The position numbers and the translations under genes were made by a program. This document shows positions 21,477 through 56,535 of a DNA stretch of 64,000 nt, piece by piece. Below the pieces are notes generated by a model, which worked only from the letters and a program-made list of their open reading frames with translations, made no database searches and had not been told where the DNA came from. Within the stretch, counting starts at the first letter, position 1, and every line of letters starts with the position of its first letter. The stretch is from Octopus vulgaris (Eukaryota), in NCBI GenBank assembly GCA_951406725.2, contig OX597815.1:106702001-106766000 (forward strand). Reading direction: 5' to 3'.

Positions 21477-21787
21477 GGGCTGGAGAATTTCTATTTTGGA
21501 TATATTTGGGGTACTTAATTGTGCTCATGACTTAGTGTTTACTTCTCCCATGGGTATAAGTATTTCATTTATTCCTTTGCCGCATTTATCACTGACGAAA
21601 AGAAGGTTCTTATGGACTAACTCTGAAATCGGGTCCGATATCGTAATAACGGAATTTGTTTAGAAATTTCTGTCGGCTTTCTTCGAGACGCGTATTTATA
21701 GTGATGAATTATATGGTTATGGACGATGTGTCTAATTTCGGTGTATTTGGCATTAGAAATTTTTTCTTTTGCCCTTGTTTATAAGTT

Positions 21788-26819: not shown

Positions 26820-27135
26820 ATGGGCTAAAGAGTTTCTATTTTGGATATATTTGGGGTACTTAGTTGTGCTCATGACTTAGTGTTCACTTCTTCCATGGGT
26901 ATAAGTAAGTATTTCACTTATTTCTTTGCCGCATTTATCACTGAGGAGGGAAGGTTCTTATGAACTAACTCTGAAATTGGGTCCGATATGGTAATAACGG
27001 AATTTTTTAAGAAATTTCCGTTGGCTTTCTTCGAAACGCGTGCTTGTAGTGATAAATTACACGGTTATTGACGTTGTGTCTATTTTCGGCATATTTTGGC
27101 ATTAGAAATTTTTTATTTTGCCCTTACTTATAAAT
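26820..27135 (+). mobile_element. PLE pseudo-LTR-like element (family P1) ending in (TA)n, with a hammerhead-like core
   Basis: ATTTATCA-CTGAGGA(26941)-GGGAAGG...CTTTCTTC-GAAA(27033)-CGCGTGCTTGTA-GTGATAAAT; homologous to 21473-21791 and 31471-31721. Confidence 0.6.
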
Positions 27136-50489: not shown

Positions 50490-50797
50490 TATTTCTTTTA
50501 TTGGTTTTTACTTGTTTCAGACATTAAACTGCAGCCATGCTGGGGCACAGCCTTGAAGAAATTTTCGTCAGACAAATCGACAACAGCATTTATACTATCA
50601 CGCTTTTATGTCAAATCGTGTTTGTCCCCAACCATCAGAGCCAATGGTTCGAGACAGACACATATACAAAGACACACATACCCGTATGTGTGTGTGTGTG
50701 GGTGCGTGTGTGCATATATACACACCCTCTTTTGTTATATATATATTATCTATACATAAATATACATACACACGCACACACACACGCGCACACACAC

Positions 50798-51939: not shown

Positions 51940-52305
51940 TATACATAGATACTTTTTTTATACTCTTATATATATTTTTTATATTCTTATATATTTTTTT
52001 ATATTCTTATATCTTTTTTTACATTCTTATATCTTTTTTTATATATTTTTAAAAATTTTACTCTTTTGTAATCTTTTACTCTTCTACTCCCCCTTTGTGA
52101 GCCCTAACTCACTAAAGATTCAACCCCCCAACCCCTTCCCTCTCTAGCTCAATATCCAAACTTCCCCATTCTACATCGAGTCAAAAGCGGGATGGACGCT
52201 TCGATTTCGTGTTGGTGCCCCACTCTGTCGTACGCAACTATGAGGATTTGCATCCCCAACGTAAAACTTATAATGTAATATATGTCCTTGAAGTAGTAAT
52301 TGTAC

Positions 52306-52393
52306 GCGGCTGAAGAAGGCCATAGACACACATTTACATCAATTATGCATTGTTATAAAACCGTCTAATAAAGGCCCGAAACATATGTACCGC
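52306..52393 (+). ncRNA. minimal type I hammerhead ribozyme in a PLE pLTR-like element (~51950-52500)
   Basis: GCGG-CTGAAGA-AGGCC...GGCCC-GAAA-CATATG-TA-CCGC. Stem I is GCGG/CCGC, the core is intact, stem II is GGCC/GGCC, stem III is short and palindromic (ACATATGT), and the cleavage triplet is GUA. Confidence 0.75.
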
Positions 52394-52495
52394 TAAATCC
52401 TTTGAATCATGTTTTTATTTTGATTAATATACTCTATCACCTACACCACTAAATGGTATATACAGGTGCTTACAACTATCAAGTATTCACCCTGA

Positions 52496-52555
<60 letters not shown>

Positions 52556-52564
<9 letters not shown>

Positions 52565-52716
52565 GTGTATAAAAATTATACACAAAGGGAAAAGCCACTA
52601 AGTGGTTTTCCAGCACGCTATAAATGGGAGTTAAATCCCAAACCACGAAAAACCTATTCTTATTTTAAATAAGTGGCTTCTCCCTTCGTGTATAATTTTT
52701 ATACACATATAATATA
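52556..52716. repeat. inverted repeat adjoining (TA)n
   Basis: TGTATAAAAATTATACACAAAGGGAAAAGCCACT vs AGTGGCTTCTCCCTTCGTGTATAATTTTTATACA. Confidence 0.8.
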
Positions 52717-52810
52717 TTTGCAGTCTAGGGATATTTTTACTCACGTTGGTCACTGGTAAAAATTAATATTTAAATGTTTACCCTTTATTCATATATATAT
52801 ATATATATAT

Positions 52811-52942
52811 ATTTATTTTATAGAAGGAGCTTTTACAAGACTAGAACTGTTTCATTCAGATGAAATCTTCAGGAAGCTTCCTGAAGATTTCATCTGAATG
52901 AAACAGTTCTAGTCCTGTAGAAGCTCCTTCTATAAAATAAAT
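52811..52942. repeat. 132-bp near-perfect palindrome (two mirrored hammerheads)
   Basis: Centred on AAG|CTT (52876/52877), with two mismatches between the arms. Confidence 0.95.
52875..52925 (+). ncRNA. type I hammerhead ribozyme (mirror copy on the - strand at 52828-52878)
   Basis: AGCTTC-CTGAAGA-TTTCATCTGAAT-GAAA-CAG-TTCTAGTC-CTG-TA-GAAGCT. It has a 6-bp stem I, an intact core, a weak 3-bp stem II, a 4-bp stem III and a GUA site. Confidence 0.75.
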
Positions 52943-53022
52943 TACTTTATTCTGCAATGTATTGAGTACCTTATTTACTGTGGTTAACCCCGACTCAACC
53001 CGGGACCTACATATATATATAT

Positions 53023-53284
53023 AGTACAATAGTAATGGCTTGTTACTGCTCCAAATGTGTCAGGAACTAGATTTATGCCATGTTCCAGCAGAAAGATACT
53101 GAACCATATGGTTACATTCAGGCTCGAAGCAGTGGGATATAATTGATTTTGTTTTTGCTTGTGAGCGTGATGTTCATGATGTGTTGAATCAGCATAGACG
53201 GGGAATTTAATGCTGGACTGGCCTTTGTCTTGTTCGTGTAAAAGTGAACTTTATTATCAAACCGAGGGTAAGAGCCAATGATAT

Positions 53285-53290
<6 letters not shown>
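53023..53290 (+). repeat. 268-bp duplicate of 55055-55322 inserted in a (TA)n tract
   Basis: AGTACAATAGTAATGGC...GATATGACTAT appears identical by eye to the downstream RTE endonuclease segment; (TA)n lies on both sides. Confidence 0.93.
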
Positions 53291-53343
<53 letters not shown>

Positions 53344-54899: not shown

Positions 54900-56535
54900 T
54901 GGCAATACGGACTCCAGAACGGATAATAAAAGAGTCTGGCTCGGCAGGTGCAAGATTCTTTGTGCTGATAAAGTTGTCACATTTGGTGACGTCAGTGCAA
55001 AATTTGACAAGGATTACTAAACCGGGAATGAAGTCGGGAAACATAGAGCTAGAAAGTACAATAGTAATGGCTTGTTACTGCTCCAAATGTGTCAGGAACT
55101 AGATTTATGCCATGTTCCAGCAGAAAGATACTGAACCATATGGTTACATTCAGGCTCGAAGCAGTGGGATATAATTGATTTTGTTTTTGCTTGTGAGCGT
55201 GATGTTCATGATGTGTTGAATCAGCATAGACGGGGAATTTAATGCTGGACTGGCCTTTGTCTTGTTCGTGTAAAAGTGAACTTTATTATCAAACCGAGGG
55301 TAAGAGCCAATGATATGACTATCTAAAAGAAATTAATTGTAACTCGTTTGAAAGATGATGCTATTAAGGAAAAGTTGGCGAAGAGAATGGTCAACAAGGA
55401 ATTCAACGACTCGCGGGAAGCATCTATGTGTTTAGAGGAAAGAAAATATTGAAGATGGTTTCATGAAAATGAAGTTCAGACACTATTAAATGACAAAGAT
55501 GTAGCGCTTACAAGAATCTTTGGTAGAGAACCAGAAAAGCCTAAGAACGAACCTTGTACATGCAGATGAAGTGTAAGGTACAGCATCGGTTTTGTGGCAT
55601 ACTAAATACTTTGTGGGAATAAAGTACACTGTACAGTATATCCGATGGCAAATGTATGTAAATGACATTGAAGTTCTCGAACGTTCTCAGCCTACCAGTG
55701 CAGAAACTCTCGTACTTTAGCACCGATTATGAAGGAGTGGTCATGTGATGATAATGGAAGATAATCAGGTGCTCAAACAATTATTTCTGTGTGGTGAGTT
55801 AGCCCAGAGTAAGAGACCGTCACACAAACAAAAATTAAGGTATAAGGAAGACATTAAAAATATACTGGAGAAGGTCAAAATCTTGGAAATTGGATAGGAA
55901 TTCCTTGCTCTAGATCAGTGAGGGTTCCCCGGAACCTTAGGGTTCCGCCAGTACAGTCCAGGGGTTCCGCAAGAAGTTACAAAATTGCTAAAATCGGCAG
56001 TAATTTTTAATTCTCCTGTGCAGATATGTGTGCATAAAACTATTAAATTATTGCACAAGGGTTCCTCAAGCCAGTGGAATGTTTCCTTGGGGTTCCGCTC
56101 CAGCAAAAAGTTTGAAAAGCACTGCTCTACATCATTCATCACGGAAGAAAGCAGTCCATGGTGAGAAGAGAGAGTTTGAATCAAATCATATCAAGCATGA
56201 ACAGCTCAGGAGAGATATTCATAAGGATTTTGATGTGAATTTATCTGAGTATACTGGCGCACAGCCTGATGAAACATATAACGAGTGTGGTCGTTTCTGT
56301 CTCAGTAAGGCAAGTCTTAGAAGTCATAAGAGAAGACGCAGACATAGGAAACTTGTTTTCTGTGCATTATATGGCATCCCTGCATGCTAGGTGTGCACAA
56401 AATAATGTGCATCAGGAGGTGAACTGAAAAGTTATCAGAAGTTTCACCAAAGTGGTACTGCAAGATGCACACGTTGTTACATCAATGCAATAAAATGTAA
56501 GTCCCTAGCAGGATTCACAAGCCCAATCCATTCTT
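54900..56535 (+). mobile_element. RTE-clade LINE remnant: APE endonuclease + C-terminus, RT deleted, interrupted by a MITE
   Basis: DKVVTFGDVSAK..GKH..KYNSNGLLLLQMCQEL, FQQK..WLHSGSKQWDIIDFV and WFHENE..LL, then IRWQ..EVLER..GHVM.MED..KQLF.GEL..KR..KLRYKE and the C-terminal ECGRFCLSKASLRSH. Confidence 0.88.
55916..56124. mobile_element. hAT-Charlie-type MITE
   Basis: CAGTG...GTTTGAAAAGCACTG termini, internal GGGTTCC repeats and an 8-bp TSD CTCTAGAT/CTCTACAT (NTCTAGAN target). The LINE frame resumes after it. Confidence 0.85.

Follow-up and report, generated by a model that had tools for sequence, protein, structure and literature searches.

The window, which is the whole 64,000-nucleotide stretch of Octopus vulgaris DNA under analysis, carries at positions 52811-53010 an insertion of about 200 nt, made up of a short arm in inverted orientation, an arm in forward orientation and a tail of 68 nt. 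The palindrome formed by the arms (52811-52876 and 52877-52942) counts 66 nt on each side, 97% complementary and with zero spacer, in agreement with the original prediction of a near-perfect palindrome of 132 bp. Its placing inside (TA)n holds for the left flank and fails on the right, where the tail intervenes down to 53010. The unit is related below to a Penelope-like element (PLE), and positions with a plus sign are those of the element. The features are the following.

52790..52810, no strand: left flank, (TA)n target tract (from sequence)
52811..52878, minus strand: short inverted arm, element +1 to about +68, with its outer end in the AATAAA region and base changes at +41 and +46 (from sequence)
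52828..52878, minus strand: hammerhead motif of the mirror arm, in which G+46>A weakens stem I (from sequence and fold)
52875..52878, no strand: AGCT joint common to both arms, equal to +1 to +4 of the parent RNA (presumed microhomology)
52875..52925, plus strand: putative type I hammerhead of the Hydra-PLE form (CUGANGAU...UGAA), with the layout of Hydra hammerheads in the available supplement of PMC8557442 (from sequence)
52916..52934, plus strand: local 8-bp hairpin, alternative to stem I, over the predicted cut site and including the G+46/G+49 hot spots at 52920 and 52923 (from centroid structures)
52943..53010, plus strand: one-sided 68-nt tail; in parents, the start of the open reading frame (ORF) lies about 45 nt beyond
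53011..53023, no strand: right flank, (AT)n, whose first 4 nt also match the continuation of the parent RNA (microhomology)

An inverted insertion with two hammerhead motifs

The tail is present on one side only, as it is in 16 of the 16 sister copies examined, and the window copy has neither TATA-like box nor ORF. The short inverted arm (52811-52878) matches the parent copy L297 at 90% over 68 nt; at the position of the AGCT joint, parent copies run on into unrelated upstream sequence instead. Both substitutions previously read in the left arm are confirmed: +41 C>T results in a G-U pair, and +46 G>A breaks the first pair past the cut site. The view of the insertion as young and coding-free is likewise upheld, sister copies being 95-98% identical and the 713-aa frame of the parent still open.

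Each arm had also been described as a complete type I hammerhead. In the right arm, stem I (52875-80/52920-25), CUGAAGA (52881-87), stem II (UUC/GAA), GAAA (52900-03), stem III (ACAG/CUGU) and a GUA ending at A52919, with AATAAA next, can be read from the sequence, and the motif spans +1 to +51 with a predicted cut 3' of A52919, i.e., after +45. The type I core (CUGANGA, GAAA and NUH) is thus present by sequence together with three stems, and the U-U at position 10.1/11.1 is the same as in the Hydra motifs listed in the available supplement of PMC8557442. The Rfam scan that had been proposed as a check gave 0 hits at the gathering score and 28 hits at E<=10, none of them a hammerhead family, and ViennaRNA predicted stem I on the isolated arm with no three-way junction (z -0.66 to -1.0). 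Since Rfam and folding give no support, the call is based on core sequence, by-eye pairing and family context, so that the description stands for the core and the stem pairing and does not extend to an Rfam match or a predicted junction. The two motifs being on opposite strands, they never occur together in one RNA. Conservation of the core across copies, which had been expected of a true hammerhead, is found among five subfamily references, where all 5 variable hammerhead positions fall in N7 or in loops (p about 5e-4); upstream of the hammerhead, 16 of 45 positions are variable in the same references. This distribution suggests selection on the hammerhead motif in the parent lineage.

The parent Penelope-like element

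The parent ORF was found by walking upstream from the 3' region of the family itself. In at least 14 of 30 loci, the hammerhead and tail lie directly upstream of a 713-aa ORF with reverse transcriptase (RT) and GIY-YIG endonuclease motifs, and the intact 5' end is ordered as a TATA-like box, the hammerhead at +1 to +51, AATAAA, the end of the tail at about +136 and, about 45 nt further on, the ATG of the 713-aa frame. The TATA-like box begins at -29 in all five subfamily references, which points to +1 as the likely start of transcription.

By eye, the motifs LDIEDYY, SMGA, YRDDGL and a C-terminal VYxC..SYIG can be recognized in the frame, which, as in the Hydra clade, is a single ORF joining RT to a C-terminal GIY-YIG endonuclease. 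The likeness to Hydra-clade EN+ PLEs (PMC8557442) extends to the presence of DKT rather than DKG, to the linker CNC-5-C (CxCX5C), to CDLC (CxxC) and CMH (CxH) flanking the E and N of the endonuclease, to the absence of CCHH (no cysteine pair lies between the GIY and YIG equivalents of the 713-aa ORF), to insertion into (TA)n, and to a canonical type I hammerhead layout in the pLTR. The octopus parent differs from the clade by RWR at the place of RWK, a conservative change that was counted as agreement, and by its length of about 3.3-3.9 kb (an ORF of 2.14 kb plus 1.1-1.7 kb from the last 180 nt of the ORF to the 3' hammerhead), which a microsatellite-rich 3' region carries beyond the Hydra-clade value of less than 3 kb, a tendency and not a strict criterion (PMC8557442). 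In addition, its hammerhead sequence is unlike that of Hydra-1_Obim, the cephalopod family listed in the available part of that paper, and most sampled insertions are stubs of 60-300 bp. A Pfam search with a 492-aa part of the parent ORF returned no RT or GIY-YIG family and only a weak, unrelated VtrA_C match, and a PDB search with the full ORF gave 0 hits; because neither gave a supporting match, the domain calls are made on motifs. Judged by protein motifs, (TA)n target and hammerhead layout, the stub arms are the 5' end of a Hydra-clade PLE, and the Penelope-like origin first proposed for them is supported by their equivalence to the 5' end of an element with a 713-aa RT/GIY-YIG ORF.

A 779-aa RT ORF in locus L092 was considered as a parent and rejected, being the ORF of another PLE family (family B) that is nested in a TA tract. 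Family B (L092 1970-5880; L239, L240) is a 4.4-kb tandem unit with many open 784-aa RT/GIY-YIG frames. An intron-like acceptor sets off an upstream frame, and the hammerhead of the unit is minimal, with a U3-A8 core and 589 core matches. Further related RT families (G000, e.g., C12:44420206 and C19:23217853) are about 50-57% identical to the Hydra-type query and have open frames of up to about 1,090 aa.

Stub census, joints and a route to the insertion

In the 2.8-Gb, microsatellite-rich genome, the arms have at least 8,480 pattern matches, a 27-mer from the tail has 2,060 exact matches, the exact central joint (16-mer) is found at 706 places and a joint 20-mer of two subfamilies occurs 313 times, with arms paired in inverted orientation at separations from 33 bp to over 6 kb. 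The proposed check of arm copy number and linkage to a PLE ORF thus has a positive answer, parent copies carrying the hammerhead and tail upstream of the 713-aa frame. The palindrome is not a rare object but the commonest product of an autonomous PLE family; the single window copy is an ordinary member of its stub family, and a stub that lacks the TATA-like box is probably a dead end. The first 100 tail matches listed for contig 1 supplied 90 insertions, or 89 once a duplicate was dropped. An inverted short arm lies within 330 bp in 64 of these 89 tail-selected insertions; of the rest, 12 are long copies and 13 lack a short arm. Tail ends run straight into (AT)n in 104 of 119 cases, and the short arm has its outer end inside a stretch of about 11 nt at the AATAAA region in each of the 119 anchored cases.

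Perfect palindromes are a known artefact of long reads, and an assembly fold-back had been raised from the outset as a possible source of this one. The asymmetric tail and the 706 identical joints, along with two fixed biological ends and arm-specific differences, rule it out for practical purposes and leave it a negligible probability; moreover, both ends with their (AT)n are also present in contigs of independent runs, which show neither the joint itself nor start sites.

The inner arm ends of the 64 stubs pile up at one position, an arm ending at 0 to +2 in 35 of the stubs. The full AGCT joint of the window is found in 11, and the fact that so few of the stubs ending at +1 have it indicates that the end point is not just a matter of microhomology. 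Overall, 39 joints have microhomology, 8 are blunt and 17 contain inserts, some of which match nearby element sequence. The 706 identical joints, with the 95-100% likeness of the first 40 scored copies across the entire palindrome, would also be expected of a self-propagating, non-autonomous palindromic element, retrozyme-like or MITE-like, that is copied as a unit. However, several subfamilies have this same joint, and in each of them the loops show the variants of the respective parent, 53 of the 64 sampled stubs carry other joints, and stubs have no TATA-like box and do not form tandem arrays as non-LTR retrozymes do (bioRxiv 10.64898/2026.07.22.740005), all of which makes such an element improbable. 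Non-LTR retrozymes and minimal PLE hammerheads (PMC4209133; bioRxiv 10.64898/2026.07.22.740005) do share with the stubs a PLE-derived type I hammerhead in a short non-coding repeat. The octopus stub, in contrast to the former, is head-to-head and not a head-to-tail tandem, with one sense motif per strand, and in contrast to the latter has a stem III of 4 bp with an 8-nt loop; the suggested kinship with retrozymes, which are defined by head-to-tail tandem units with sense hammerheads, is therefore not borne out.

The two arms of an insertion nearly always have source variants in common. Subfamily sites are concordant between the arms in 70 of the 75 pairs with both motifs (L001-L016 being excluded as chosen for likeness), where random pairing would give about 15, and at the dimorphic +34 site 32 of 33 pairs are concordant. 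A test for target-site duplications gave 6 of 35, which is not above the control (mean 3.5, maximum 7). In L058, L005, L182 and L217, duplications of interrupted TA of 15-16 nt flank the stub on both sides, and the target-site duplication possibly has this length.

Built on the parent structure, the fixed outer ends, the pile-up at +1 and the concordance of the arms, our favoured and fairly probable reading is that the window holds a short head-to-head Hydra-clade PLE insertion in (TA)n, generated by two-strand priming, 5' run-off and AGCT joining. The enzyme of the element would cut both strands of the (TA)n target, these strands would prime two cDNAs at two sites close to the RNA start, both cDNAs would run off the 5' end of the RNA at +1, and they would then be joined head to head through the self-complementary AGCT by microhomology end-joining. 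Arm concordance suggests a single RNA, or a single source locus, for both cDNAs. That two cDNAs meet head to head at the 5' boundary of the ribozyme had been proposed from the start, and it is our preference too. In vitro, the anole PLE cuts and extends both strands, uses two adjacent internal RNA start sites and is a predicted dimer (PMC11167929). This element, the PAc Poseidon of Anolis, resembles the octopus family in its AT-rich target, in the two internal RT starts that define a tail and in a hammerhead just upstream, whose cleavage is dispensable in vitro; the PAc steps were measured in vitro, and head-to-head products and joints are not described in the available part of that work, whereas the octopus mechanism is deduced from genomic copies.

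A different origin of the inverted arm would be self-priming, in which a strand end folds back and is copied, with the variety of joints due to later deletions of an unstable palindrome. It is near to the published proposal of self-priming on the antisense template for head-to-head Penelope palindromes (PMC3846280), and it accounts for private variants common to both arms (4 cases). Arm concordance, too, fits fold-back or hairpin-mediated repair equally well and to that extent counts against the two-strand model. Nevertheless, a perfect AGCT centre leaves no hairpin loop, the fixed outer end of the short arm and the tail on the other arm go unexplained, and the arms do not overlap in 10 of the 64 stubs, an arrangement not directly obtainable by fold-back copying; we thus consider self-priming unlikely. 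Non-overlapping arms could also result from later deletions at the palindrome centre, and since such deletions may mimic non-overlap and the duplication test is not above control, confidence in two-strand priming is moderate. In the same genome, family B also forms head-to-head pairs, but with scattered joints among the 14 short pairs listed.

PLE insertions in inverted form, with the tail on one side and hammerheads on opposite strands, have been reported before (PMC8557442; PMC4209133). Indeed, Penelope-13_HM has an inverted, 5'-truncated copy with a hammerhead on both strands (available supplement of PMC8557442), and Schistosoma has opposite-strand hammerhead pairs 100-700 bp apart (PMC4209133). 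The pLTR and tail arrangement of Penelope/Poseidon, Neptune and Naiad (PMC3846280, PMC8557442) is alike in its head-to-head arms, joint palindrome and tail at one end; the octopus family differs in a tail of 68 nt versus 30-40 nt and in inner ends that pile up at one position, likely the start site. What goes beyond the known cases is the share of stubs (64/89), the piling of arm ends at +1 and the arm concordance. A literature search, with subscription journals, Repbase and bioRxiv supplements outside it and possibly holding the family, yielded no account of PLE twin priming or of such stubs, and none are described in the available parts of PMC13282606 and PMC12910113. The formation of tandem and inverted PLE structures and the role of the hammerhead are named as open questions in PMC8557442. 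With thousands of short insertions that can be scored and have fixed outer ends, and with a parent ORF that is still open, the octopus family makes two-strand priming directly testable against self-priming.

Cut-site variation, read-through RNA and neighbouring repeats

Differences between the two arms of one insertion concentrate at G+46 (14 of 75 pairs) and G+49 (17 of 75), never in both arms, while other positions differ at most 3 times, bar an edge effect at +6. These changes are arm-specific losses or substitutions adjoining the predicted cut site, and G+46>A in the left arm of the window belongs to the same class. In the 10-nt segment at the cut site, 887 of 8,480 arms genome-wide are variant, versus 393 of 7,986 in the adjacent segment, whose reference pattern is one base shorter (odds ratio 2.3). 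Stubs have hot-spot variants more often (22 of 197 arms) than do arms next to parent upstream sequence (2 of 85; p 0.018). For the same 5-mers, ORF copies have 1 deletion in 749 sites, and other palindromes have 4 in 1,839 similar triplets, which argues against a general base-calling error, a local one being conceivable. Of the 589 matches listed for family B, the first 100 include 1 variant at the cut site, and the hot spot is hence no general trait of the PLE hammerheads of the O. vulgaris genome.

RT crossing a ribozyme nick would explain the changes at +46, but not easily those at +49. There is no pile-up of cDNA arm ends at the predicted cut site (4 of 128 arm ends at +44 to +50), in line with uncut RNA as the usual template. 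We tentatively raise a broader picture, which is possible rather than probable: the stubs would be a natural record of inverted PLE insertion (one RNP, both strands, two RNA sites), the loss of G+46/G+49 would be the scar of RT crossing a hammerhead-cut template, and a cephalopod-type genome would have been seeded with ADAR-edited hairpins by the thousand. If this is true, the hot-spot scar is genomic evidence of PLE hammerhead cleavage in vivo.

RNA reading through the palindrome had been expected to fold either as a self-cleaving ribozyme or as a hairpin. The hairpin is predicted at -99.6 kcal/mol, with 0 of 200 shuffles equally stable (ViennaRNA), and the isolated arm at about -10 kcal/mol, i.e., the hairpin is predicted to be more stable by about 90 kcal/mol; in addition, the antisense arm is transcribed first, whichever strand is read. 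For both reasons, the fold predicted for read-through RNA is a 66-bp hairpin in which the putative ribozyme would be hidden, and a switch between the two forms is unlikely.

Editing was looked for in contigs of sequencing runs aligned to one parent copy, which are not assignable to the window locus. A>G differences at +37, +45 and +48 amount to 12%, 6% and 7% in run X1 and to 1%, 8% and 8% in run X11, both guessed to be RNA, and are near zero at the same sites in the large runs X15 and X20. T>C inside +1 to +66, the sign of editing of the mirror arm, is not listed among the contig differences. As the runs come from different organisms, have no matched DNA and lack T>C for the mirror arm, the data give a weak hint of A-to-I editing of family RNA. 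A ribozyme/dsRNA switch selected by the host at the window locus would draw on this hint; yet the locus is one among thousands of young copies, its left motif is already damaged, the hairpin dominates, and the A>G signal belongs to a parent copy, and we hold such a switch to be very improbable. In X15 and X20, summed contig depth over the hammerhead and tail is roughly 100- to 2,000-fold above the ORF, which suggests that stubs are abundant in relatives too, contig depth being no copy number.

Other repeats lie close to the insertion. Another PLE-like repeat has its 3' end at 52306-52497, where it reaches a TA tract at 52497; its minimal hammerhead motif has the core at 52310 and a palindromic stem III near 52380; an ankyrin exon considered near 52300 was dropped, the stretch being this PLE end. 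A second head-to-head-like inverted repeat occupies 52557-52790, with arms of about 50 nt (52557-52712) and, on one side, an extension that runs to a TA tract; it showed no hammerhead core, nor any match among the loci compared. A CCCT motif 6-7 nt before the TA tract is common to three different repeat ends, at 50723, 52488 and 52779 (family D12), and the tail end of family B resembles them. A further dispersed repeat, which has a CUGANGA...GAAA motif, is present twice, at 21592-21645 and 26941-26993, and has relatives in L222, L095 and L248, one of them as an inverted pair. Finally, 53009-53293 and 55041-55325 are a direct duplication of 285 nt with 98% identity.
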